NCBI GenBank assembly: GCA_964453345.1
Contig: CAYVOC010000046.1
Coordinates: forward strand, 1-10,531
DNA length: 10,531 nt
Reading direction: 5' to 3'
From: an uncultured Aquificales bacterium
Lineage (GTDB): Bacteria; Thermosulfidibacterota; Thermosulfidibacteria; Thermosulfidibacterales; Thermosulfidibacteraceae
In this document: piece by piece, positions 1 to 10,531 of the stretch
How the letters are laid out: the number at the start of each line of letters is the position of its first letter
How positions within the stretch are numbered: the first letter of the stretch is position 1
The notes under the pieces: model-generated
Database searches by the model: none
What the model was told of the DNA's origin: nothing
What the model saw: only the letters and a program-made list of their open reading frames with translations
Position numbers and translations under genes: made by a program

Positions 1-87
1 TGGAGGAGGAAATTTCTGGAGAGGATGCATCTTGCCTTTGAGAAGGATAGGAATACAGTGGCTTTGGGTAGTTGTGAGGGTGTGTAG
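1..87 (+). CDS. Probable 3' end of an upstream CDS (partial, product unknown)
   Basis: Frame 1 is open from the window edge: WRRKFLERMHLAFEKDRNTVALGSCEGV then TAG (85-87). Purine-rich codon style matches the other + strand genes. Too short to assign. Confidence 0.45.
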   Translation, partial: WRRKFLERMHLAFEKDRNTVALGSCEGV

Positions 88-157
88 AGGTTGTGGTATT
101 AGCAAAAATGGGTAATTTGTTGTTCCAAGTTATAGACTTAGCAAAAAGGTGACGGTT

Positions 158-1489
158 ATGGCCAAGGCCTTTGTCATAGCCGGTGTTGGAAGCGGATCCG
201 GAAAGACCACGGTCACATGCTCCGTTATACTCGCCCTGAAGAAGATGGGCTATAGAGTCCAGCCCTTTAAGGTTGGACCCGACTACATAGATCCTCAGCA
301 TCTGTCCAAGGCGGCAGGCAGACCCTGCAGGAATCTTGATGTCTGGATGATGGGGCCTGAGGGGGTGAGGGAAAACTTTCTGAGGGGTTGCTGCGGGGTT
401 GATGTGTGCGTGGTTGAGGGGGTGGGTGGGGTATACGATGGTTTGGGGTGCGAATCCTTTGCTTCGACAGCCCATGTGGCCAGGATCCTCGGGCTACCCG
501 TGATACTCGTTCTTGATGCCTGGGGGATTTCCAGGACAGCTGCGGCTTTGGTGAAGGGTATCAGGGACTTTGAGGATCTGGATGTTAGAGGCGTCATCTT
601 TAACTTTGCCGGAAGCGAGAGGCACTGCAGTCTGCTGAGGCAGGTTGTGGAGTCATCCCTCCCAGAAACTCGCGTGCTCGGTTGCATAGTCAGAAGCAAG
701 AAGGGCTTTGTTCCTGAAAGACACTTGGGGATACTGCAGGCGTGGGAGCTGGACTGGAGGGATAGGGAAGGGATACTGCTTGATCTTTCGAAGAATATTG
801 ATGTGGAGGGAATACTGGGCCTTGCGGTGGATGTGGAGGGTGCAGGTGTTTTTCCCCGGATGGAAGGATCCCTGAAGATTGCGGTGGCAAGGGACAGGGC
901 CTTTTCCTTTCTATACACGGAGACCCTTGAGGCCCTGGAGGAGAGTGGATGCAGGATAGTGTTTTTTTCTCCTGTGGACGGGGAAGGGATACCCTCCGAT
1001 GCCCGGGGGCTGATCCTCCCCGGCGGGTATCCGGAGCTTTGGGCGGATGAGCTTGAGGAAAGCGGTTTCTTTAAAGAGTTGAGGATTTATGCGGATTCGG
1101 GCATGCCCATCTACGCCGAGTGCGGAGGACTCATAGCCCTCTCAAGATGTGCCCTTTACAAGGGGAGGAGGCTTCCCATGGCCGGTGTTATTCCCGTGGA
1201 GGTGGAGTTCGGATCCAGGCCCCTTCTTGGATACGCGGCAGGCTCGGCCAGACCGGGACACCCCTTCTTGAGGGCCGACACCGTGGTGAAGGGCCATGTC
1301 TTTCACTATTCAAGGGCGAAGCTTTTGGGGGAGATTGACAGGGCATACAGGCTCTCCTTGCCCACGAGGGGGATGGAGCTGGACGAGGGCTTCGTGAAGG
1401 GGAAGGTGGTTGCCACCTACCTGCACACCTGCTGGGGATACGGGGAGGCCCGCCGCATCATGGAGGGTTTTTTAGAGGCGGCTGTTTAG
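158..1489 (+). CDS. cbiA: Cobyrinate a,c-diamide synthase family protein (CbiA/CobB; family also includes DsrN and CfbB)
   Basis: N-terminal P-loop [57 protein letters not shown] and the GATase nucleophile motif IYAECGG. ATG at 158 is preferred over GTG at 149 because an AAGGTGA Shine-Dalgarno lies just upstream. Confidence 0.9.
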
Positions 1490-1511
1490 TTTGGCCCTTC
1501 CCGACCGATTT
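1485..1511 (+). promoter_or_regulatory. Putative sigma28 (FliA/SigD) promoter
   Basis: TTTAGTTT(1485-1492)-N11-ACCGATTT(1504-1511) versus the consensus TAAAGTTT-N11-GCCGATAA. Spacing is exact, and a GGAGGGGAG SD and ATG 1534 follow. Confidence 0.6.
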
Positions 1512-1533
1512 TGTATTCTGGAGGGGAGTAGCC

Positions 1534-1959
1534 ATGCGGGTGGGGTCCATCTCTCAGATCCAGGTGGCCATGGCGAAGGGGGATAAGAAGAGAGAAAGGC
1601 AGATTATTGAGGAACTCAAGCGGACGGATCAGAAGGTCAGACAGCATGAGATGGCCCACAAGGTTGCAGGGGGAAGATACGCCGGCCCGCCCCACTTCAG
1701 GTTTGTTAAGGGTCCCGACGGGAGGTTGTATGCCGTGGCCGGCGAGGTCAACATAGATGTGAGCGAAGAGAGGGATCCGGAAGAGACCATAAGGAAGATG
1801 GAGACGGTGATAAGGGCTGCCCTTGCCCCCGCCGATCCCTCGCCCCAGGACAGAAGGGTGGCTGCGGAGGCCGCCCGCAAGCTCATGAAGGCTCAAATGG
1901 AGCTTGCAAGGCAGAGGCAGAAGTCGGGTGAAGGATCCCGGTTCTCCCTTTTAGCTTAG
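1534..1959 (+). CDS. SprA-related family protein (putative metalloprotease, CJM1_0395-like, HExxH)
   Basis: Family motifs D..VR.HE.AH (HEMAH), GPDG..YAV.GEV.ID and T..K...V..AALAPA.PS.QD..VAA.A. Strong SD at 1520-1528. Confidence 0.85.
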
Positions 1960-2433
1960 CTCGAGGATCTCCGCACCCATTCCTTCCAGGTCCACGATTG
2001 CCACCGTGGGTTTGCCTGTTAGCCAGCCGCAGCATTCTCCCGGGTTTACCACGAGGGTGTCGCCCACCCTTTCCACCACCGGTTTGTGGGTGTGCCCGTA
2101 GAGGATTACGTGGTATTCTCCGGATGCGGCGATCTCTTTTACAAAGTGGTGGTAGTGCTTGATCAGGATCTTTTTGCCGGAAAGCTCTATCTGCTTGGGT
2201 TCCTTTGAGAGCCTTCCGTCGGATCTTTTTAGAAGTATTTCAATCTCCCCATCGTTGTTTCCCAGAACGCCTATCCACTCAAATCCGGACTGGTTCAGCA
2301 AATCCAGGCAGAAGGGGGAGATTATGTCGCCGCAGTGTATAACAATGTCCACGCCCCTTTCCTGAAACACCTCCAGTGCCCTTTTAACGTTGTCCAGATG
2401 ATCGTGGGTGTCCGAGATGACTCCAAGCAGCAT
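1951..2433 (-). CDS. Metallophosphoesterase, YfcE/MJ0936 family
   Basis: Calcineurin-like motifs SDTH, HCGD, GNND, H, GHTH and NPG. SD GGGGAGGGAG upstream of the ATG. Confidence 0.92.
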
Positions 2434-2465
2434 GGTTGCTCCCTCCCCTTTTTTCGTCTATTTCA

Positions 2466-2494
2466 AGGATAGGGGAGTCTTTTGCGGCGGTCAA
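2466..2494 (-). promoter_or_regulatory. Putative sigma70 promoter for the metallophosphoesterase
   Basis: Minus strand TTGACC(2494-2489)-N17-TATCCT(2471-2466), about 30 nt upstream of the start codon. Confidence 0.55.
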
Positions 2495-2497
2495 GAA

Positions 2498-3190
2498 ATG
2501 GATGATATGGAAAAGAGCCTTTTTGCGCTTCTAAGGTGGTATCAGGCGGCGGGAATAGGGCACTACTTTGCTACGGGGGATAGGGTTGAGATGCCTGTGA
2601 AAGAGAGTGCTTCCCAAGGCGGATCCGACAAGGCCAGGCTTCTTGAGGCCGTGAGGGAGGAGCTTGGCGATTGCAAGAGGTGTCCTCTGTGGAAGACCAG
2701 AAGGCACATAGTCTTCGGAGAGGGAAGTCCTGAGGCGAAGGTTATGTTTGTGGGCGAGGCCCCGGGCGAGGAGGAAGACAAGCAGGGGAGGCCCTTTGTG
2801 GGCATGGCGGGGCAGCTTCTCACGAGGCTCATAGAGGAGGTCGGCTGGAGGAGGGAGGAGGTTTACATTGCGAATGTTCTGAAGTGCAGGCCGCCGGGAA
2901 ACAGAAATCCCAAGGAGGAGGAGATAGAGGCCTGTAGTCCTTTTCTTTTGAAGCAGATCGACGTGATAAAACCGAAGATTATATGCGCCCTCGGAACCTT
3001 TTCAGCCCAGCTGCTTCTGGGCAAAAAACTGCCCATAAGCAGGATAAGGGGAAGGGTGCTCGTGGGCTGGAAGGGATATAGAATTTTCCCCACCTACCAT
3101 CCCGCTTACCTTTTGAGGAATCCCAAGCAGAAGACGGTGGCCCTCAACGACTTCAGGCTTCTTAAGAGGCTGGTCGAGGATGAGGCCTAA
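2498..3190 (+). CDS. udg: Uracil-DNA glycosylase, family 4 ([4Fe-4S] type)
   Basis: CKRC...VFGEG, FVGEAPGEEED..G.PFVG.AG.LL, YIANVLKCRPP.NR.P...E...C and PTYHPAYLLR. The ORF-track start at 2408 overlaps the divergent gene, so ATG 2498 (or 2507) is more likely. Confidence 0.93.
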   Translation: MDDMEKSLFALLRWYQAAGIGHYFATGDRVEMPVKESASQGGSDKARLLEAVREELGDCKRCPLWKTRRHIVFGEGSPEAKVMFVGEAPGEEEDKQGRPFVGMAGQLLTRLIEEVGWRREEVYIANVLKCRPPGNRNPKEEEIEACSPFLLKQIDVIKPKIICALGTFSAQLLLGKKLPISRIRGRVLVGWKGYRIFPTYHPAYLLRNPKQKTVALNDFRLLKRLVEDEA

Positions 3191-4178
3191 GCTCGTCTTT
3201 CTGCCCAACTGGGTGGGCGATTTTCTCATGGCCATGGCATATCTGGGGGATCTTGCCCTTGAGGGGAAGGTGCTTCTTTTTGGGAAGGCGAGGTTCTTTG
3301 AGCTTGTTAGAGGGGCTCTTCCCCCCGGGGTGTGGATGGACAGGGGCAGAAGCTTTCTTGAAGACTGGTGGAACCTGTTCAGGTCCTCGGCTGTTGAGGC
3401 CGTTCTTCTTCCCAACTCCTTCTATTCCGCCCTCGTTTCCACCCTTGCCGGTATGAAGTGCACCGGGGTTGTTTCCGATGGGAGGGGGTTTCTGCTCACC
3501 AGAAGGGTGTTTCTGGATAGGGACAGGATAGTCCATCAGGCCGAGATCTATCGCATGGTCCTGGCCAAAGCGCTTCTGGAGGTTCCTGAAAAACCTGATC
3601 CCTTTATTTATCTGGCTGACGAGGATCTCGAGTGGGCCAAGGAGAGGTTGAGGAGGCTGGGATGGGAGGGGGAGAGGATGCTCATCGTGCATCCGGGGGC
3701 ATCCAAACCGGAGAGGTGCTGGCCGGCCGATAGGTTCAGGGAGGTTGTTGCGAGGGCCTTGAGAAGGGGATGGGTTGTGGCCCTTGTTGGCGGGGGCTCC
3801 GATGCCAAGATTGCGGAGCGTGTGTGCGATGGCTTGGGAGACGGTTGCTTCAATCTGGCTGAGGAAAACCCTCCTTTGGGGAGGCTTGCCGCCTTCATTT
3901 CCCAGGGGGATCTCTTTTTGGGCAACGACAGCGGTCCGTTGCATATAGCCGCCGCCCTCGGGCTTGATTGTGTGGGAATTTATGGGACAAGTGTTCCCGA
4001 AAAGACGGGTCCCCTTCTGGCTGAGGGAGCCAGGTTTGTTCCTGTGGCGAGCAGGTTTCCCTGCTCCCCCTGCAGGGAGAGGTTCTTTAAGGAGTGCGAG
4101 CCTGTGGGGGGAATACCTCCCTGCATCGACGCCATAGGGGTTGAGGAGGTCTGGGAGGCTCTGGAGTCCCTTATGTGA
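3180..4178 (+). CDS. Glycosyltransferase family 9 (ADP-heptose:LPS heptosyltransferase, WaaF-like)
   Basis: PNWVGD.LM N-terminus, LPNSF.SA, HPGAS...R.WP, GNDSGPLHIAAALG, GIYG.S.P and a C-terminal CSPC...C...C. Overlaps the udg 3' end by 11 nt. Confidence 0.88.
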   Translation: MRPKLVFLPNWVGDFLMAMAYLGDLALEGKVLLFGKARFFELVRGALPPGVWMDRGRSFLEDWWNLFRSSAVEAVLLPNSFYSALVSTLAGMKCTGVVSDGRGFLLTRRVFLDRDRIVHQAEIYRMVLAKALLEVPEKPDPFIYLADEDLEWAKERLRRLGWEGERMLIVHPGASKPERCWPADRFREVVARALRRGWVVALVGGGSDAKIAERVCDGLGDGCFNLAEENPPLGRLAAFISQGDLFLGNDSGPLHIAAALGLDCVGIYGTSVPEKTGPLLAEGARFVPVASRFPCSPCRERFFKECEPVGGIPPCIDAIGVEEVWEALESLM

Positions 4179-4888
4179 TGAAGTATAGGAGGCTGGTCAA
4201 TCCAGAAGGGCTGGTTCCCTTTCAGGTAAGATTTAAGGAGAGCAACCTCCTTATCCTTGCAGAAAGGGATCTCTCCTCGGAGGCGGTTGAGAGACTTGTT
4301 AAGCTGCGCGGGGAGCTTGATGAGTATGTTGAGAGGCATCCGCTTTTTGTGAAGAGCCTTGTCCCCCTGCCCTTTGATGAGGAGGCGCCCCAGGTTGTTA
4401 AAAGGATGCTGAAGGCCTGTTCCGTGGCCGGGGTTGGCCCCATGGCGGCTGTTGCGGGGGCTGTGGCGGAGGAGTTGGGAAGGTTCCTGGTGGGCTTTTC
4501 CAAGGAGGTGATAGTGGAAAACGGCGGTGATATATATCTGCGCTCCTCAACCGAGAGGGTCGTTTCGGTGTATGCCGGTTCCTCACCCTTCTCCGGCAGG
4601 ATTGGCATAAGGCTGCCCGCCGGAGAGTGGGGTGTTGCCACATCCTCCGGGACCGTGGGCCACTCTTTGAGCTTTGGCAGGGCTGATGCGGCGGTTGTGG
4701 TGTCCCCTTCGGCGGCTCTCTCTGACGCCTTTGCAACTGCCCTGGGAAACAGGGTTGAGGGTGAGGAGGACATAGAGCAGGCGCTGAGGTGGATTTCCGA
4801 TTTTGAGGAGCAGGGCGTCCTTGGTGCCCTGCTCCTTGTTGGCGGAAGGATGGGTGCCTGGGGGAAGATAGAGCTGGTGAAGCTCTAA
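4178..4888 (+). CDS. UPF0280 family protein (ApbE superfamily)
   Basis: VGPMAAVAGA, IVENGGDI and TSSGTVGHSLSFG.ADA motifs. TGATG stop/start overlap with the GT9 gene (alternative GTG at 4175). Confidence 0.88.
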   Translation: MKYRRLVNPEGLVPFQVRFKESNLLILAERDLSSEAVERLVKLRGELDEYVERHPLFVKSLVPLPFDEEAPQVVKRMLKACSVAGVGPMAAVAGAVAEELGRFLVGFSKEVIVENGGDIYLRSSTERVVSVYAGSSPFSGRIGIRLPAGEWGVATSSGTVGHSLSFGRADAAVVVSPSAALSDAFATALGNRVEGEEDIEQALRWISDFEEQGVLGALLLVGGRMGAWGKIELVKL

Positions 4889-6660
4889 GCTGCCCTGCTG
4901 TAGAACCACTTCTTGGCCTCTCCGTAGGCCTTGCGCAGTTCCTCCATGGCCTTGAGCAGGTAATATCCTGCCTGGGTGAGGGTGTTGGTGCCCAGAAACT
5001 TCGTCATGCGCGCTATGCGGATCACTTCGCTGAAGGTCTCCGGATCAAGCCCTGAGAGCTTCTCCACCTTCTTCCAGCGATCGGGCCTGACCCTGATCTT
5101 CTTCTCCCTCTCGTAGAGGGTTCCCACCTCCCTTATGGCCTCGACAACCCTGACAAGATGGGGGGTTACGGGATTGCCAAAACCGCTTGTGACGCCTGCA
5201 AGCGCCCTTTTGAGATAAATACCCGCCTCGGTCAGTATCACTATCCCTGTGGGCAGAATCTCGACAAAGCCCTTGGCGTCCAGCATCTCTATGGCCTTGC
5301 GTATCTTGTGGCCCCCCTCCTCGTTGTATTTCTCCATGTATTCCTTCAGATAGAGGACGTTCTGCTCCGATATCTTGGAGAGCACCTCCATCTCGTAGTC
5401 GGTTATGTGGGGCAGTCTGTCTATGGATGCCGCCATGTTTGCATACATCTCTCCGGACTTTGACGGGCCGAAGTTGCCCACGAGTCCCTGGCTTCTTGCC
5501 TCCTCATACCAGTCAACACCGGGCGCCATAAACTCCTTCCTGGTTATGGTGATGCACTTGACTGCGGGAGAGGTTATGGCCCTTCTGTTCTGTTTCTGAT
5601 CCTCAAGGACCTTCTTGCCCCACTCCGTGAACTCGTAAACCAGTCTTCCCTTGGGTCCTATAACGGAGGTCAGGATTCCGAAACACTCGAGGGAGTAGAG
5701 GCACTTCATGGTGTCCTTTTCCAGATCGGGGCGCTTCTTGGCGATCCACTCCCTTATCTGCTTGGGCGTGGGAGCTATCTCCGGATTTTCCTTGTGCTTC
5801 TGCCACAGCTCGTCGATGGTGAAGATAACCTCTATGTCGTCGTCGCTGAGAACAATGGAGGGGGTAAGGAGCATGGCTCCCTCGTTGTATAGCTTATAGG
5901 CCATGTAGAGGGCTTCTCCCGCGGGCAAAAGCTCAAGGTTCTCGTCAATGTAGGCCATGGCCTGGAGGGTAACGATGTCGTTTTCGCTTAGGTCCTGGGG
6001 GGACTCCTTCGCCCTCTTAACCGCAAGCATGATGTCCACGCTCACAACGGTGGGGAAGGGCTGTGCCCCCTTCTCTATGGCCTCCTTTATCTTCTGCCCC
6101 AGACCCGTGAAGGTGAAGAAGTCGGCAGGCGGCATGGAGAAGGCTATGAGCCTCTGCGCCTCAAGCTGCTTCACGAGTTCATCTTCTATGTTGACAGCCC
6201 CCGTCTTCTTGACAGGTCCCACGGGAAGCTTCCTGATGAGCTTTGCCAGCTCCTGATCAATAACAAGCTGGGGCCTTGCAAGCCTGTATATCTCCCAGAG
6301 TTCCTCACCTTCAGGTGTGAGTTTGCCATCCTTCGCAAGTCCCCTTTCCTCAAGGGGCTTCACGAAGTCCTCGGGGATTCTGCCGGATGCCTTTATAACC
6401 GAGTCAACCATGGCTATCACGTCGGATCCCACGAACCTGAAGTTGTCAGGCCAGCTTTCGGTATCAATGCCCTTCTCCTCTATGGCCTTTATCAGGTCAG
6501 CTAAGGACTCTCCGGTGTAGGTTAGGGCGTAGTATCCCGGCAGCTCGAACTTCAGGATCCCCGCAAGCTCAAGGATCCGTGCCTCCTCGGTCCCCTTCTC
6601 CGGCCTTTCGCCGGCGGCGATTCTTTTGAGAAGCTTGACTCCCTTGCCGGTTATGATCAT
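4885..6660 (-). CDS. DUF505-like protein (uncharacterised, tandem winged-helix-like repeats)
   Basis: 591-aa ORF with strong SD AGGAGGTGA (6673-6665). Length and motifs (FT.LG, LE.FG, VGTLY.REKK.R..P) resemble DUF505/COG1542 proteins as I recall them; not verified by search. Eight recurring [LF]T..G..[LIV]-type motifs. Confidence 0.7.
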   Translation of the reverse strand: MIITGKGVKLLKRIAAGERPEKGTEEARILELAGILKFELPGYYALTYTGESLADLIKAIEEKGIDTESWPDNFRFVGSDVIAMVDSVIKASGRIPEDFVKPLEERGLAKDGKLTPEGEELWEIYRLARPQLVIDQELAKLIRKLPVGPVKKTGAVNIEDELVKQLEAQRLIAFSMPPADFFTFTGLGQKIKEAIEKGAQPFPTVVSVDIMLAVKRAKESPQDLSENDIVTLQAMAYIDENLELLPAGEALYMAYKLYNEGAMLLTPSIVLSDDDIEVIFTIDELWQKHKENPEIAPTPKQIREWIAKKRPDLEKDTMKCLYSLECFGILTSVIGPKGRLVYEFTEWGKKVLEDQKQNRRAITSPAVKCITITRKEFMAPGVDWYEEARSQGLVGNFGPSKSGEMYANMAASIDRLPHITDYEMEVLSKISEQNVLYLKEYMEKYNEEGGHKIRKAIEMLDAKGFVEILPTGIVILTEAGIYLKRALAGVTSGFGNPVTPHLVRVVEAIREVGTLYEREKKIRVRPDRWKKVEKLSGLDPETFSEVIRIARMTKFLGTNTLTQAGYYLLKAMEELRKAYGEAKKWFYSRAA

Positions 6661-6692
6661 ACTTTCACCTCCTCTGCGGGTTTTCTACGCTT

Positions 6693-6721
6693 AAAATGCA
6701 TCTTGAGTAATATAATGTCAA
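6693..6721 (-). promoter_or_regulatory. Possible sigma70 promoter for the DUF505-like gene
   Basis: Minus strand perfect TTGACA (6721-6716), then N17 and a weak -10 CATTTT (6698-6693), in an AT-rich intergenic region. Confidence 0.4.
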
Positions 6722-6755
6722 GTTTTCTTATATTTGCGATTTATCTTGTTGCCTC

Positions 6756-6784
6756 TTGACATACTCCCCGGTAGATTTTAACAT
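6756..6784 (+). promoter_or_regulatory. Sigma70 promoter for tRNA-Gly-lptE-holA
   Basis: TTGACA(6756-6761)-N17-TAACAT(6779-6784), ending 14 nt upstream of the tRNA 5' end. Confidence 0.75.
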
Positions 6785-6798
6785 AAAAATCGGAAAGA

Positions 6799-6873
6799 GC
6801 GGGCGTAATTCAGGGGTAGAATGCCAGCTTCCCAAGCTGGAAGTCGCGGGTTCGAATCCCGTCGCCCGCTCCA
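6799..6873 (+). tRNA. tRNA-Gly (anticodon CCC)
   Basis: Cloverleaf: acceptor GCGGGCG/CGCCCGC, D-arm ATTC/GAAT, anticodon arm CCAGC-TTCCCAA-GCTGG, T-arm GCGGG-TTCGAAT-CCCGT, discriminator T and encoded CCA. Confidence 0.97.
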
Positions 6874-6895
6874 ATTTTTTATTTTAAGGTGCCGG

Positions 6896-7399
6896 ATGAG
6901 GTGGATCCTTCCCCTGCTCTCTCTTTTGGTTCTATCCTGCGGATACAGGCTCGTTGGAACCTATCCGGAAGGAAGCAAGAGGGTTCACCTTGCGGGTTCC
7001 AAGGTCTATGTGGCTCCCTTTAAAAACAGAACAGAGGAGCCAAATGTGGAGTATTACATAACCGATCAGCTGGTCTCCTCCCTTCAGAGGACCGGTAAGA
7101 TCACCATAGTTTCCCGTGAGGAGGCCGATTACACCGTGGAGGGGGAGGTGGTGGGCTACACCAAGGATGTGGTGGCCCTTGACAGCTCCGGGGACGTTTC
7201 CGTTTACAGGTTGACCATTTCGGCGAATGTGGTGGTCAAGGATAGGGACGGGAAGGTGCTTGAAAGGCTTAAGGGGATAAGCGAGTATGAGGATTACCAG
7301 GTATACAGCGACATAGAGAGGACGAAATCCGCCGAAAGGGAGGCGGTTGAGCGTATCTCCCAGGAGATAGGACAGCTTATAGCCTCGCTTCTGCTGTGA
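6896..7399 (+). CDS. lptE: LPS assembly lipoprotein LptE family
   Basis: Start at ATG 6896 (SD AAGGTG), since the ORF-track start 6821 lies inside the tRNA. Signal peptide with lipobox LLVLS-CGY(R), F.N.T.EP motif, AD..V.G.V and Y.L...A.V. Conserved position directly upstream of holA. Confidence 0.85.
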
Positions 7400-8361
7400 T
7401 GAGGATACACACTCCCAAGGCCTTTGCTGCTCTTTTAAAGAGGGAAAAGCCCTCGAAGGTTCTGATCGTTGGAACGGAGTCCGCATTTGTTAAGAAAACC
7501 GTGGATCTTCTCATAGATGCCTGGGGCGTTCCCAAGGAGAGCGTTCGGGAGTTTTTTGATCCTTCCCAGCTCACCCTTGATGAGCTGTCGGACGCCCTTT
7601 TCTCGGCGTCTCTCTTTTCCAGTGCCAGTGTGGTTATTCTGAGGGATTGCTGGAGGTTTATAGAGGGCCTGTCGCAGAAGCAAAGGGCTGTTTTTAAAAG
7701 GATGCTTGAGGAAAAGCCTTCCGATGTATGTCTCATCATGATTTCCGAGGAAGAAGGGGATCCGGAAAGGCTTCCAGTGGTGAGGTTTGTTAGGGATCTC
7801 TCCTTTGAGGTTGTGAACTGCAGGAAGGCCCGTCCCCAGGAGATGAAACAGTGGTTGAAAAAGAGGCTTAGGGGGATGGGGCTTGAGGATGAGGCCCTGC
7901 TGGAAGCCCTTGTGGAGGCCTCCGGTGGGAGCATGGAGGCCCTGCAGAGGGAGCTTGAGAAGCTCACTGTTGGAGGCAGAAGGGATTCTATTTCCAATGT
8001 GAAGGGATACACCCCCTGGGATCTTCTGAACCTTATGGTGGACGGGGACTGGAGGGCCTTTGAAGCCTTTGACTATCTGGTGAGGATAGGGGTCTCCTAT
8101 TTAGCCATACTTTCAACCATCCAGCTTGGCCTGCGCAACATGTTGCTCTGGAAGGCCGGGGTCAGAAGCTTTTCCAGGGGTGTTGAGATCATGATGGAGA
8201 GAAGCCTCCAGAAGATCGGTGTGGATGGCGCTCGGAGGCTTTATAAAAGAAGCATAGAGCTGGAAAAGAAGCTGAAGTTTTCCGCATCCGGTGATCTTGC
8301 AAGACGGGCCTTTGAGGAGTTTATAGCCTGGGCCCTTGTTGAGGGGATACGCTCCCCGTGA
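7399..8361 (+). CDS. holA: DNA polymerase III subunit delta (divergent)
   Basis: About 320 aa with LI.G.E..F, S.SLF....VV, W.......G and G.....L..ELEKL motifs. TGATG overlap with lptE matches the conserved lptE-holA synteny. Confidence 0.78.
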   Translation: MRIHTPKAFAALLKREKPSKVLIVGTESAFVKKTVDLLIDAWGVPKESVREFFDPSQLTLDELSDALFSASLFSSASVVILRDCWRFIEGLSQKQRAVFKRMLEEKPSDVCLIMISEEEGDPERLPVVRFVRDLSFEVVNCRKARPQEMKQWLKKRLRGMGLEDEALLEALVEASGGSMEALQRELEKLTVGGRRDSISNVKGYTPWDLLNLMVDGDWRAFEAFDYLVRIGVSYLAILSTIQLGLRNMLLWKAGVRSFSRGVEIMMERSLQKIGVDGARRLYKRSIELEKKLKFSASGDLARRAFEEFIAWALVEGIRSP

Positions 8362-9295
8362 GGCATTTCAGCAGTATTGTTGCGTAGCTGCCCCGCGGCA
8401 GGCTGAATTCCAGCCTGATGCTCCCTTCGCCCAGAGGGCTCCACCTCAGATTTTCTGGAAACACCCTTATTGGGCGTCTGCTTCCCGGAGATTTGAAGGG
8501 TTTGAAGGATTCAAGGGCTATGTGGTGTTTTTGCATGAGGGATCTTTCAAACTCAAGGGATTTGCCCGAGGGCAGAGGCATCCTGTATCCGAGGATGGGG
8601 CCTGTGGGGATGGGTATGCCCGTGCATTTTGCGAATCTTTCCGGAATCCAGGATCCGTCTTCAAAGATCAGATCCCCCTCCATTATCCCCTCGAAGAAGC
8701 CCGCCTTTGCCCTTTCTTCAAGGTAAAGATTGAAGAACCAGGCCGAAACGGCGGAAATGTAGAGCCTCAAGAGGTATGGAGAGGCCTTGACCCTCTCTCC
8801 CTTGATGAGCCTGAGGCCCTTCTCCAAGTTCCTTCCCCTGTCGCCGAACCTCTGAGTATCAAAGAAGTTGGGAAAGCCCTCTTTTGATACCGCCTTCAGC
8901 CTCTCGATCAGCCTGTTCATGTCGCTCACCCTTCTCAGCACGATGGAGAAGCGGTTGCCCACAAGGTGCCCGGCTCTCAGCTTGCGGGGGTAGTGTCGGA
9001 TCTCCATGATCCTGAAGCCTTCCCATTCGTTGCGGATAAGGTCTTCGGGTTTGATTCCCTTGGAGGGGATGGTGAGATGCTGTATGGCCACGGCCTGCGA
9101 GTCCTTCAGCCCCGCATATCCTATGAGCTTTTCCGGTATGTGCAGCCTTCTGGCAAGCTGCTTGATGACCTGAAGGGTGCTGACGCCGGTTTTTTCAATC
9201 TTTATGAGCCAGTGAGCTGCTCCCCCCTCTGAGGGTTCGATGATCTCCTCCACAACAAAATCCTCGGGATACTTCTTGAAGGTGAAGGAGAGCAT
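8321..9295 (-). CDS. truD: tRNA pseudouridine(13) synthase TruD
   Basis: PEDFVVEE, K.G..T, YAGLKD..A...Q (catalytic Asp), G.L.GNRF.I.LR, GFPNFF..QRFG, G.RR and F.LP.GSYAT. Confidence 0.93.
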   Translation of the reverse strand: MLSFTFKKYPEDFVVEEIIEPSEGGAAHWLIKIEKTGVSTLQVIKQLARRLHIPEKLIGYAGLKDSQAVAIQHLTIPSKGIKPEDLIRNEWEGFRIMEIRHYPRKLRAGHLVGNRFSIVLRRVSDMNRLIERLKAVSKEGFPNFFDTQRFGDRGRNLEKGLRLIKGERVKASPYLLRLYISAVSAWFFNLYLEERAKAGFFEGIMEGDLIFEDGSWIPERFAKCTGIPIPTGPILGYRMPLPSGKSLEFERSLMQKHHIALESFKPFKSPGSRRPIRVFPENLRWSPLGEGSIRLEFSLPRGSYATILLKCLTGSVSPQQGPRL

Positions 9296-9298
9296 CCC

Positions 9299-9550
9299 TC
9301 AATCTTTCTTCTCGCGCCTCTGATAGCTGCATGCCTCCGAACCGGAGGCGGTGTCTATGCTTCAGAGGGGGCCTCCTATTTTGCCCGTGCGCCTGTAGAG
9401 CCATATCTGCCACAAAAATATGAGGGCCGCTATTCCCACATAGGCCAAGGCGCCCTGGTTGCGGGTTGCGAGATACTCCCCTATCCCCTCCACGGTCATG
9501 AACACCGCAAACAGAATCCAGATAAGTCCGCTTATGGTTCGAGGATCCAT
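9299..9550 (-). CDS. Small two-TM membrane protein; candidate 83-aa selenoprotein (Sec at TGA 9364-9362), or 62 aa (9362-9550) if TGA is a stop
   Basis: SD GGGAG and ATG 10 nt after the MCP stop, with two hydrophobic segments. The in-frame TGA is followed by a SECIS-like hairpin. Read-through gives ...KIGGPL-U-SIDTASGSEACSYQRREKKD and a TGA at 9301-9299, 3 nt before the truD ATG. Confidence 0.7.
9333..9364 (-). promoter_or_regulatory. Putative bacterial SECIS element
   Basis: mRNA UGA-AGCAUAGACACC-GCCUCC-GGUUC-GGAGGC. GC-rich upper stem (9349-9333), 18 nt from UGA to loop, loop begins GGU at positions 22-24 counting U of UGA as 1. No U-tract follows. Confidence 0.65.
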
Positions 9551-9560
9551 GCTTTTCTCC

Positions 9561-10531
9561 CTATACCTTGAATTTTCCTATTTTCTCGTTGAGGTCCACC
9601 ACCTGATGGTTGATGTCGCTTATGGCCTTGGTGGTCTCTTCCACTCCCTTGCTCACCTCCTCCATAGCCTGGTCGGTTTCAACGATGCTGTGGACGGCCT
9701 CCTCTATTGCGGCGCTCTGCTCCTCCGACATTCTCCTCACCTCTTCCATCTGCTGCTTCACCTGTCTTGCCCCTTCAACCACCTCCTCGAGCACCTCGGC
9801 TGAACTGACTATCCTTTCGGCCTGCTCCTCGGCCTGCTTTGTGTATTCGCTTATGATATTGGCAAAGCCGGAGACGGTGTTTCCTATCTCCTCCACCATC
9901 TTTTCGATCTCCTGGGTGCTCTTCATGGTCTCTTCAGCCAGCTTCCTTATCTCGTCGGCGACAACGGCAAAGCCCCTTCCGTGTTCGCCGGCGCGGGCAG
10001 CCTCTATTGCCGCGTTGAGAGCGAGAAGGTTGGTCTGATCCGCTATGTTGGCGATAACATCCACGATGCCTGTGATCCTTTTGGCCGCCTCCCCCACCTT
10101 CTGGGCTTCTTGTGCGATCTCTCCCAGTTCCCTTATGGCAACCTCCTTGTTCCAGCGCGCTATCTCCTTGAAGGCTTCAACCCCTTCCGATGCGGTCTTC
10201 TCGGACTGCTCGGCGAAGCTCGTGGCGCTTTCAATGCTGCTGACCAGGGACTTTATGGATGCGGACAGCTCCTCCATGGCCCCGGCTATTCTGCTTAAGT
10301 TATCCTTGGCGTTCTTTGCCATCATGTTTATCTCTTCGCTGCTCGCCGAGACCTGGGTGGTGGCTGAGAGTATGGTGGTGGAGGCGTCCTTTATGGCGGC
10401 GATGGCCTCGCGGGTGTTTTCAACCATCTTGCTCACATGATCGGTGGTCTCTCCGAAGTCGTCCATGGTGAGCACCTCAGGCTTGGCCGTGAGATCGCCG
10501 GTTGCGTTCTTTTTAACCGTTTCGTTGACGG
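9561..10531 (-). CDS. Methyl-accepting chemotaxis protein (partial: HAMP + signalling domain, 5' end outside window)
   Basis: Hairpin-tip motif [38 protein letters not shown] and methylation-like SEE/MEE/IEE sites. The frame stays open beyond 10475 to the window edge and reads ...[22 protein letters not shown]..., a HAMP signature. Confidence 0.95.

Follow-up and report, generated by a model that had tools for sequence, protein, structure and literature searches.

Bacterial elements for selenocysteine (Sec) insertion follow a consensus model (bSECIS), given in Figure 2A of a 2026 review (PMC13188914) as a hairpin with a stem of 4–16 bp, a loop of 3–9 nt with G in the first two loop positions, a UGA-to-loop distance of 16–37 nt, and a minimum free energy of –7.5 kcal/mol or below. 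In the E. coli element, as described in PMC8659212, G23 and U24 lie in the loop and G23 contacts SelB. Eukaryotes have the selenoproteins SELENOS (SelS) and SELENOK (SelK), and for SelS a selenosulfide between Cys174 and Sec188, spaced by 13 residues, has been proposed (PMC3628699). Predicted Sec-containing transporters are also listed in the review, among them MerT-like proteins with a C/SxxU motif and the SO_0444 Cu/Zn efflux protein with UxC, and most of these transporters have been linked to resistance against metals or metalloids (PMC13188914).

We analyzed a 10,531-nt stretch of DNA (the window) from an uncultured hydrothermal-vent bacterium with a genome of 1.5 Mb. An earlier note, made from the letters alone, had described at 9299–9550 a candidate small membrane selenoprotein gene, with a selenocysteine codon posing as its stop. 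Re-reading of the sequence showed the anatomy given there to be exact in all details, the strand being minus. The upstream gene encodes an MCP-domain protein (MCPsignal domain, E 1.1e-43) and ends in TAG (9563–9561, minus strand, as are all features below). Directly after this stop comes a Shine–Dalgarno-like GGAG (9557–9560), 6 nt 5' of the ATG at 9550. A 62-codon ORF (9365–9550) encodes a hairpin of two transmembrane (TM) helices and then a basic segment, YRRTGKIGGPL, and runs into an in-frame UGA (9362–9364), the proposed codon for Sec63. A predicted bSECIS hairpin, GCCTCC-GGTTC-GGAGGC (9333–9349), follows, with a 6-bp stem (GCCUCC/GGAGGC) and the loop GGUUC. It occupies nt 16–32, counting the U of the UGA as 1, and the distance from UGA to loop is exactly 18 nt. 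The frame remains open for 20 codons (SIDTASGSEACSYQRREKKD; 9302–9361), a putative Sec-dependent extension with a TGC codon for Cys74 (9331–9329) in a U-x10-C arrangement relative to Sec63. A second TGA (9299–9301) is the proposed true stop of an 83-codon ORF; GGG (3 nt) separates it from the ATG of truD (8321–9295; Pfam TruD, E 1.8e-64), making the gap between TGA63 and that ATG 66 nt. The truD gene, for tRNA pseudouridine synthase D, is a separate downstream gene and lies outside the selenoprotein.

The reading of this locus as a membrane selenoprotein with Sec63 and Cys74 is strongly supported by a conserved TGA, the hairpin, Cys-form homologues and the Sec machinery of the genome. From these sequence data, we put the probability of a genuine selenoprotein gene, 83 and not 62 codons long, at about 85%, and we infer that selenium is inserted at UGA63 itself. 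Assignment of UGA63 to Sec draws on the identical codon in readable homologues, the alignment with Cys and the Sec machinery; that of the extension draws on its open frame, its Cys and its protein-level conservation.

Each of the phylum's 18 genomes, which represent three families and seven genera, has a homologue; protein identity to the window copy drops to 22–30% in the two other families. Two of the 18 copies are cut by contig ends, two are Cys forms, and 14, from 14 species-level genomes, have a readable 3' end; among the latter, 13 are intact and one (G012) is broken, with a TAG and a frameshift. TGA occupies the same codon in all 14 readable copies, a count that overstates independence because these copies are related and all come from one small phylum. 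Homologues ending here in TAA or TAG, which the earlier note regarded as evidence against recoding, number 0/14. The second (true) stop varies among the 13 intact copies: TGA in nine, TAA in three and TAG in one. Genome-wide, TGA is the commonest stop but accounts for only 46% (777/1693). Residues M1, S7, G8, W11, G22, Y52, T55, G56 and G60 are invariant in 13 homologues. A six-row profile of the family matched five loci in genome contigs and two in metagenome contigs, all duplicates of genomes already in the set.

The window hairpin fits the published bSECIS model and the E. coli register, as the earlier note had it, and the model is satisfied by 13/13 intact homologues. Its register relative to the TGA is the same in all 14 readable copies; G23 is invariant (14/14), and G23 and U24 are in the loop. 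Compensatory changes were seen at four of the six stem pairs, with 0/500 shuffles attaining the observed values, and 90.5% of cells were paired, compared with 49–74% in slid controls. The 13 TGA forms had folding energies of –9.9 to –16.6 kcal/mol, versus –1.4 and –1.6 for the two Cys forms. For 766 long TGA-terminated ORFs of the same genome, any hairpin passing a loose bSECIS model was found in 29 (3.8%), and one equally strong and equally placed in only two (0.26%). The hairpin lacks a U-tract, and it is kept, together with the TGA, in two families whose neighbouring gene is not truD. An Rfam scan of 9200–9450 at E ≤ 10 returned no SECIS family and only two chance rows. Like E. coli fdhF and the selD and AhpC-type peroxiredoxin genes of its own genome, the locus combines an in-frame UGA with a short GC-rich stem, 18 nt from UGA to loop and G in the first two loop positions; with fdhF it also shares the register of G23/U24. 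The stem is perfect, whereas the E. coli model in PMC8659212 has a bulged U17. Unlike fdhF-type archetypes, the window protein would carry its Sec in a disordered C-terminal tail, with no folded active site.

Beyond the TGA, the 13 homologues together have 350 codons in frame 0 without a single stop, compared with five stops in frame +1 and 28 in frame +2. Frame 0 is open in 13/13 intact copies; frame +1 is also stop-free in 8/13. The tail is fast-evolving, with nonsynonymous codon differences at least as numerous as synonymous ones in 11/11 pairs compared. Conservation beyond the TGA bears out the earlier view of the tail as protein: three genomes from two genera share the motif QPKPRPP unchanged, and 4/7 of its codons differ synonymously among them, one case being AGA/CGT for Arg. 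The extension is 19–28 codons long in members of the window's family, the two other families have a 22–34-codon tail, and the Sec forms measure 82–97 aa overall. A Cys is present in every tail (13/13), either at U+2 or at U+11 to U+14. In one family (G009, G013) the motif is U-A-C and a distal Cys is lacking; a mechanism common to all members therefore cannot depend on a U-x10-C selenenylsulfide. An AF2 model has helices at residues 3–29 and 34–55, with pLDDT of about 80 there and below 50 at residues 68–72 and 77–83; the charged end of the tail is thus predicted to be disordered. The stretch just after Sec63 is flexible, and its sequence is largely set by the hairpin. Judging from the distribution of basic residues, both termini are probably cytoplasmic, with Sec63 probably about ten residues off the membrane surface and the charged, mostly basic tail end beyond it.

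Homologues with Cys at the recoded position, which the earlier note had thought worth seeking, were found in two genomes of one genus (G004 and G007). These encode 79-aa forms (...GKLGPI-CCC-G..-C-SIN..) without the TGA and without the hairpin, and Cys is also at the Sec position in protein P0009 (...GPI-CCC-G...). Sec aligns with the middle Cys of CCC, ungapped when counted from the conserved Tyr. Searches for selA, selB and a high-scoring tRNA-Sec found none in G004 or G007 (94% and 82% complete, respectively). G004 has a selD with in-frame TGA and hairpin, on a contig whose low G+C matches. A clean loss of the Sec trait in the Cys-form genus was therefore rejected: the link between Cys form and trait loss is not clean, because G004 keeps a Sec-type selD.

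The window's own genome contains selA, selB, selC and selD, each above its curated cut-off, as would be expected if the locus were recoded. Scores were 610.3 bits for selA, 393.6 bits for selB, 82.7 bits for the tRNA-Sec (selC) and 344.4 bits for selD, which itself has an in-frame TGA (Sec-type selD). Comparison with other SECIS elements of the genome was also favorable to the earlier claim. The Sec-UGAs of peroxiredoxin and selD precede similar GC stems, with loops beginning GG at nt 21–24. A whole-genome scan combining a codon model with bSECIS gave 19 candidates, and the small membrane gene, peroxiredoxin and SelD were all in the top five. Two other candidates from the scan (on contigs C34 and C6) were dropped, as they appear to be non-genic frames. 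Fdh-alpha-like and FlpD/MvhD genes of this genome have no in-frame TGA, and a tRNA 2-selenouridine synthase was sought in it and not found. Detectable selenoprotein genes in the genome-wide scan number three: selD, the AhpC-type peroxiredoxin and the small membrane gene. With only three, the small membrane gene is a candidate reason that the lineage maintains Sec decoding; a phylum-wide conserved selenoprotein, if real, may partly account for retention of this costly machinery.

The earlier note recognized no known selenoprotein family here, and comparison with Pfam, NCBIfam and Table 1 of the review agrees. Pfam gave nothing above cut-off for 13 members, and NCBIfam release 20 gave zero families at E ≤ 1. 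Nor was there a match to the 119 prokaryotic selenoprotein families of the 2026 list (PMC13188914, Table 1), searched through the Pfam and NCBIfam models that define all but a few of them (the few having cd or PTHR models only). DUF202 (PF02656; YidH/Vtc1) appeared below threshold in 5/13 members, with a best E of 0.006, and was rejected. Foldseek against the PDB returned nothing at E ≤ 0.001; the best E was 2.2, and the top rows were chains of the VTC complex (E 2.2–4.2). The DUF202/VTC likeness is probably a generic helix-hairpin resemblance only. TsoA, the 'LULAXC motif selenoprotein' (NF045695), compared by its name and motif, has a superficial L-U-x-x likeness (here L-U-[SA]-x, and L-U-A-C in one family) and is set apart by the absence of an NCBIfam match at E ≤ 1. 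A profile search of 1.84 billion representatives found six clusters only, five of 62 aa and one a 79-aa Cys form, and a homologous-protein search found three proteins (62, 62 and 74 aa), none of them named. All database copies found are 62-aa stubs or variant starts, none full length, and every public gene call terminates after 62 aa; the locus thus exposes a systematic annotation error, in which public records cut the gene at that point. Searches of the literature other than BSepDB and supplementary candidate lists, such as those of a groundwater-MAG study (ref. 66 of PMC13188914), found no account of such a family. As far as these searches show, the proposed selenoprotein family is new to current catalogues, and it would add one to the prokaryotic list, whose 119 families or subfamilies in Table 1 of the review include none similar (PMC13188914).

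In architecture, the predicted protein resembles SELENOS and SELENOK, likewise small membrane-anchored proteins in which a flexible, charged cytosolic tail carries the Sec. The SelS Cys–Sec spacing of 13 given in PMC3628699 is comparable to the 11–14-residue Sec-to-Cys distances found here. None of the 13 members matched a SelK or SelS Pfam family at E ≤ 1, and there is no sequence similarity. There are two TM helices here versus one in SelK/SelS; Sec is 20–34 residues from the C-terminus here but penultimate or antepenultimate there; Cys comes after Sec here and before it in SelS; and a bacterial hairpin within the ORF takes the place of a 3'-UTR SECIS. On these grounds, we place the protein outside the SelK and SelS families and regard the resemblance as an analogy, which may reflect convergence. 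As far as the searches show, this would be the first tiny membrane-anchored bacterial protein with Sec in a flexible tail, an architecture otherwise represented by eukaryotic SelS/SelK. At 83 aa, with a 17-nt SECIS, it would also make a small, simple substrate for studying Sec insertion into membrane proteins.

For a selenoprotein of 83 codons, the following sequence of events can be proposed. With a ribosome at UGA63, the 17-nt hairpin starting 12 nt on would be bound by SelB-GTP with Sec-tRNASec. Sec would be inserted, and 20 more codons would be translated to the TGA abutting the truD start. The product would be a mini membrane protein with two TM helices and a Sec/Cys tail facing the cytoplasm. 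If it is a selenoprotein, a role of this tail in membrane-tethered selenol/thiol redox chemistry is the function we tentatively favor, at slightly less than an even chance. Sec63 would attack a peroxide or disulfide and form a selenenylsulfide with a nearby Cys (in the window protein, a U63–C74 bond may form), and this would be re-reduced by a thioredoxin-type system.

Alternatively, given a selenoprotein, the Sec/Cys tail might be a ligand for soft metals or metalloids (Hg, Cu, As or selenium), binding them or handing them over on the inner side of the membrane. It would then resemble the Cys pairs that small Mer-type transporters have in the cytoplasm, or the metal transporters predicted to contain Sec, and would not be a redox catalyst. 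We consider this less likely than the redox role, though it has several points in its favor. Thiophilic metal sites typically have vicinal or CxC motifs, and the family includes both, as CCC plus a fourth Cys in the Cys forms and as U-A-C in one family. In Mer transporters, one vicinal Cys pair sits in the first TM helix and another on the cytoplasmic side. Only the cytoplasmic Sec/Cys part of MerT/MerF has a counterpart in the window protein, which has no Cys pair in its helices or outer loop; the helices of the family lack any conserved Cys, and no Pfam match to MerT/MerF was obtained. The predicted Sec-containing transporters of the review are integral membrane proteins with Sec beside Cys, and the UxC of SO_0444 matches U-A-C of one family here (PMC13188914). 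But no HMM match to any of them was obtained, and the proteins studied here are far smaller (two helices, 82–97 aa) and lack a Cys pair in the membrane. Gene neighbourhoods gave no pointer to function, and the lack of metal-resistance genes nearby speaks against metal handling. Moreover, Sec and Cys lie anywhere from 2 to 14 residues apart, a spread that fits a flexible resolving Cys better than a fixed chelate. The remaining odds go to a tail function other than redox or soft-metal chemistry.

The relation to truD bears on a different proposal. Among Sec-form members of the window's family, the extended-ORF stop overlaps the truD start (ATGA/GTGA) in 5/6, with the 3-nt spacer in the window. 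This overlap persists despite the variation of 19–28 codons in extension length, and Cys forms likewise run into the truD frame. The two other families have pilM, mnmG or an unknown gene downstream, and no gene overlaps. The ORF arrangement makes translational coupling of truD to the extended ORF probable in the window's family. A more far-reaching reading, which we find improbable, combines two proposals: that the gene is a convergent, phylum-wide bacterial counterpart of SelS/SelK, its disordered Sec tail working at the cytoplasmic membrane face, and that read-through in the window's family brings ribosomes to the stop overlapping the truD start, so that selenium supply would gate translation of this tRNA-modification enzyme. 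Still less probable is the proposal that recoding serves as a switch, the 62-aa form doing most of the work and a minor extension chiefly carrying ribosomes to truD, in a selenium-dependent coupling. Such a switch would account for the overlap with truD, in Sec and Cys forms alike. Bacterial Sec insertion is inefficient, so that a truncated 62-aa product must be made too, and the conserved residues are mostly within those first 62 aa. However, the two families without truD or any overlapping neighbour keep the UGA, the hairpin, the Cys and a tail of 22–34 codons. The conserved Cys, like CCC in the Cys forms, points to selection on the tail's own chemistry.

Least probable, and very doubtful in our view, is that TGA63 is a genuine stop of a 62-aa protein, the hairpin a conserved regulatory RNA (for processing, attenuation or translation control of the next gene) and the open frame a by-product: gene callers do stop there, TGA is the commonest stop (46%), frame +1 is open too in 8/13 and the tail is poorly conserved, yet the hairpin has no U-tract and keeps its distance from the TGA also ahead of pilM, mnmG or an unknown gene, the TGA is invariant while the second stop varies, Cys forms read through the same position with no hairpin, protein-level conservation and a Cys in all tails extend past the hairpin, and it is the second stop rather than the first that is tied to the start of truD.

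DNA from independent metagenome runs gave a picture in line with a gene of 83 codons. The TGA was without variant and the ORF without indel, and the TGA and frame were the same in other samples. Metagenome variants in the ORF were synonymous at 6/7 positions, including 2/3 beyond the UGA, with codon positions as read by us.

The whole feature lies on the minus strand of the window. By our reading of the sequence, its ORF begins with the ATG at 9550, with GGAG six bases before it, and runs for 62 codons to a TGA at 9364–9362. A perfect hairpin, GCCUCC-GGUUC-GGAGGC (9349–9333), begins twelve bases past this TGA, and the frame stays open for 20 codons, encoding SIDTASGSEACSYQRREKKD, up to a second TGA (9301–9299). 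GGG and then the truD ATG (9295) follow; TruD is recognized by Pfam with E 1.8e-64. The upstream neighbor, a gene with an MCP signaling domain, ends at 9561. An earlier note had proposed a small membrane selenoprotein hidden behind the first TGA, and all its coordinates and sequence details proved correct on re-reading. We put the probability that this is a real selenoprotein gene at about 85%, an interpretation supported by the UGA, the hairpin, Cys-containing forms of the protein, the open tail and the Sec machinery.

Used as query against 40 other genomes, the 62-aa part hit relatives in 15, all of the same order, and none in the 23 genomes from other phyla that were searched. A profile of 13 read-through proteins matched in 18 of 18 genomes of the order (three families, seven genera), which is the entire phylum as represented among the genomes searched. 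Thirteen of the 18 copies are intact and contain exactly one internal TGA each, at the identical codon. The copies in genomes G003 and G011 end at contig edges before the TGA site and are not counted as readable. Another copy (L051, contig C50 of genome G012, ∼1380–1647, minus strand) keeps the TGA, hairpin and tail, but its invariant Trp11 codon is replaced by TAG and the frame shifts ahead of YxYRKTG; either the gene has decayed into a pseudogene, or the MAG is misassembled there. The internal TGA is thus invariant in 14 of 14 readable copies, with protein identity to the window falling to 22–30% in the two other families. TAA or TAG at this codon, named beforehand as a sign against recoding, occurs in none of them. 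The stop that ends the gene is not fixed (TGA in 9, TAA in 3, TAG in 1), and long ORFs of the window's own genome end in TGA 777 times (46%), TAA 489 times and TAG 427 times. Four further runs, drawn from four studies, have contigs in which the stretch recurs with 0–4 differences, with no difference at the TGA and no indels; the runs that contain it are labeled hydrothermal vent metagenomes. Six of the seven variant positions within the ORF, including two of the three after the UGA, are synonymous third positions (codon positions read by eye). The codon preceding the UGA (window 9365–9367; columns 4–6 of the nucleotide alignment) is CTC in 12 of 14 copies, the others being GTC and CTT. Leucine has six codons, and it may be that Sec decoding calls for this particular context.

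In two genomes of one genus, G004 and G007, the protein is a 79-aa form without TGA (...YRKTGKLGPI-CCC-G[ST][DN]E...C-SIN...). With the invariant Tyr as starting point, a gap-free alignment puts Sec opposite the middle Cys of CCC. Homologues thus have what the earlier note had hoped to see at codon 63, TGA in every readable copy and Cys in these two genomes. A Sec/Cys pair is a standard criterion for a selenoprotein (PMC13188914, section 6). Such a predicted pair exists for the small membrane protein, and our claim is limited to it. Among 1.84 billion representative proteins, a search with the profile picked up only six clusters; five have a length of exactly 62 aa, and the sixth is the 79-aa Cys form. 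Hence, the family is limited to this lineage, and public gene calls end at the TGA.

The assembly to which the window belongs, as contig C46, is 1.5 Mb in size and 99.9% complete. This genome encodes selA (610 bits), selB (393.6 bits; cut-off 242), selD (344 bits) and tRNA-Sec (82.7 bits; gathering score 47), and all four genes of the selA/selB/selC/selD set that was to be looked for are therefore present. Its selD has an in-frame TGA of its own in the usual context (...RASG-U-GAKLGP...). In an AhpC-type peroxiredoxin gene (contig C48, 3954–4592, minus strand), the codon for the peroxidatic residue is an in-frame TGA (FTFV-U-PTEL), with a hairpin, TGGCAGC-GGTC-GCTGCCA, 13 nt past the U; this gene belongs to a known selenoprotein family. 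Together with the small membrane protein, these are the three selenoprotein genes found in the genome scan. The selD and peroxiredoxin elements have 7–9-bp GC stems from 13–15 nt after the U and loops that start with GG at nt 21–24, the same style of element as the window's hairpin.

Across the phylum, selA scores above cut-off in 15 of 18 genomes and gives only a weak match in G017 (73% complete). It was not found in the Cys-form genomes G004 (94% complete) or G007 (82% complete), and selB is below cut-off in both. A tRNA-Sec of at least 78 bits is present in 12 of the 18 genomes; none was found in G004 or G007, nor in the TGA-form genomes G005, G006, G008 and G009. We do not claim a clean loss of Sec decoding in the Cys-form genus, because G004 keeps a selD (L067, contig C15, 1485–2390, minus strand) with an in-frame TGA and a SECIS-like hairpin. 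At 41.5% G+C, that contig fits the G004 genome, whose small-gene locus has 38.4%. The selAB operon and tRNA-Sec of G004 may have gone unassembled; otherwise, its selD is orphaned.

The hairpin has the features of a bSECIS element. Aligned from the TGA onward, the 14 nucleotide sequences are gap-free, and the stem is formed by nt 16–21 and 27–32 (U of UGA = 1); one genus has its 3' arm displaced by a single base, with a 6-nt loop. Pairing on the common structure holds in 90.5% of cells, versus 49–74% when the partner is slid by 1–3 columns. Double-sided changes occur at four of six stem pairs, with C:G, U:A or A:U closing the loop. In 500 column shuffles, the pairing, the covariation score and the count of double changes always stayed below the observed values. 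Hairpin energies range from -9.9 to -16.6 kcal/mol for the 13 TGA forms and are -1.4 and -1.6 kcal/mol at the same position in the two Cys forms. The consensus given in PMC13188914 specifies a loop of 3–9 nt, a stem of 4–16 bp, G in the first two loop positions, 16–37 nt from UGA to loop, and an MFE of -7.5 kcal/mol or lower. The bSECIS model is passed by 13 of 13 intact copies, versus 29 of 766 (3.8%) ordinary long TGA-terminated ORFs of the window's genome; a hairpin of equal strength and placement follows only 2 of these 766. The E. coli element is described in PMC8659212 as a 17-nt stem-loop (nt 15–31) with U17 bulged and G23/U24 in the loop, SelB contacting U17 and G23. The window's hairpin is likewise 17 nt long (nt 16–32), yet has no bulge. 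The fdhF-like register that had been proposed for G23 and U24 is borne out: both lie in the window's loop, all 14 copies have G at nt 23, followed at nt 24 by U in nine and by G in five. No Rfam family matches the hairpin.

Several observations bear on whether the tail is translated. The 13 tails (19–34 codons; 350 codons in total) contain no stops in frame 0, with 5 in frame +1 and 28 in frame +2. Every tail has a Cys, at U+11/+12 in the window's family, at +13/+14 in the second and at +2, as U-A-C, in the third. The hairpin-forming stretch encodes PPGSGG or PSREGG. The Cys forms lack that peptide, so it probably just comes along with the RNA structure. Conservation past the TGA, a further point to be checked, is seen at the protein level beyond the hairpin: three genomes from two genera share QPKPRPP unchanged, with four of seven codons differing synonymously (including AGA versus CGT for Arg), and the C-terminal endings ...SPFSS and ...SVD are conserved inside genera. 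Summed over 11 pairs, differences at codon positions 1, 2 and 3 number 95, 62 and 126, a weak coding signature. On the other side, nonsynonymous codon differences equal or exceed synonymous ones in all 11 tail pairs, so the tail is loosely constrained.

Overlap of a stop with the next start is what usually marks translationally coupled genes. Of the six Sec forms in the window's family, five end on a second stop that overlaps the start of truD as ATGA or GTGA, while the window has a 3-nt spacer, and this holds despite tail lengths of 19, 20, 25 and 28 codons. Such overlaps make sense only if ribosomes get to the second stop. Three tails of this family (L018, L019 and L021, from genomes G002, G001 and G006) carry a Pro/Arg/Lys-rich QPKPRPP[KR]K.. 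just before the overlap; this motif is missing from the window's tail. Ribosomes are slowed by runs of prolines and by nascent chains rich in Pro/Arg, which could be relevant to truD coupling. In the two other families, the gene sits either downstream of PGI and upstream of MnmG or an unknown gene, or downstream of Dtd and an MBL-fold hydrolase (or Dus) and upstream of PilM. UGA, hairpin, Cys and open tail persist beside these different neighbors, so the hairpin belongs to the UGA, not to truD.

An AlphaFold2 model from the 13-row alignment (mean pLDDT 68, about 80 over the helices) has helices at 3–29 and 34–55, a short turn around Sec (61–64) and a disordered tail. The segment after helix 2 has 2–4 Lys/Arg and zero acidic residues in 13 of 13 copies, the inter-helix loop has 1–3 basic residues, and the tail end is Lys/Arg-rich or of mixed charge. 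By the positive-inside rule for membrane topology, both termini are probably cytoplasmic. Pfam gave only sub-threshold matches (DUF6442, E 0.07; DUF202 in 5 of 13 members, best E 0.006), NCBIfam release 20 no family at E ≤ 1, and Foldseek no PDB match at E ≤ 0.001. The best Foldseek rows were VTC-complex chains (E 2.2–4.2), and DUF202 is the YidH/Vtc1 membrane domain; this likeness of the 62-aa part is probably generic helix-hairpin similarity.

New bacterial selenoprotein families turn up regularly. The earlier note recognized no known bacterial family here, and this view stands: Pfam and NCBIfam have no match, and none is alike in Table 1 of PMC13188914 (May 2026). That table covers 119 prokaryotic selenoprotein families and subfamilies with domain models; it includes no small two-helix membrane protein, and those of its models that were compared do not match. 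Nothing closer was found in the literature, where BSepDB compiles previously reported families (PMC13326102); supplementary or unpublished work may list the family. What is new is the family of the protein, whereas its recoding is of the ordinary kind. This would be a sound, uncatalogued selenoprotein family with an architecture unusual for bacteria.

Recoding would follow the textbook bacterial route, the hairpin recruiting SelB and Sec-tRNASec with the UGA in the A site. In the product, a selenol would sit near the inner face of the membrane, with a flexible linker leading from it to a Cys. We tentatively favor a putative redox tail, in which Sec would meet an oxidant or disulfide, the nearby Cys would resolve it as a selenenylsulfide, and a thioredoxin-type system would recycle the protein. 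A flexible resolving Cys fits the variable Sec–Cys spacing, and the Cys174–Sec188 bond proposed for SelS (PMC3628699) is a precedent. The main alternative, a putative soft-metal or metalloid ligand, seems to us less likely; it draws on CCC in the Cys forms, on U-A-C in one family, and on the link of most predicted Sec-containing transporters to metal/metalloid resistance reported in PMC13188914. Gene neighborhoods held nothing that decides between redox and metal roles.

The rest of the window (1–8361) is ordinary housekeeping. The plus strand encodes a CobB/CobQ-type amidotransferase (149–1486), a SprA-related protein (1534–1956), a uracil-DNA glycosylase family protein (2408–3187), a heptosyltransferase (3180–4175), tRNA-Gly(CCC) (6799–6873) and LptE (6821–7396). 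A metallophosphoesterase (1954–2433) and a 591-aa DUF505 protein (4888–6660) are on the minus strand. Neighbors of the small gene are unusually often tRNA/RNA enzymes across the three families (loci L018, L024, L026, L028 and L030, and truD in the window, 8321–9295): TruD in all of the window's family, SpoU methylase in G002, MnmG/GidA in G009 and Dus in G016. D-Tyr-tRNA deacylase lies two genes upstream in G017 and, by N-terminal likeness only, in G010. This excess may be a coincidence of small genomes.
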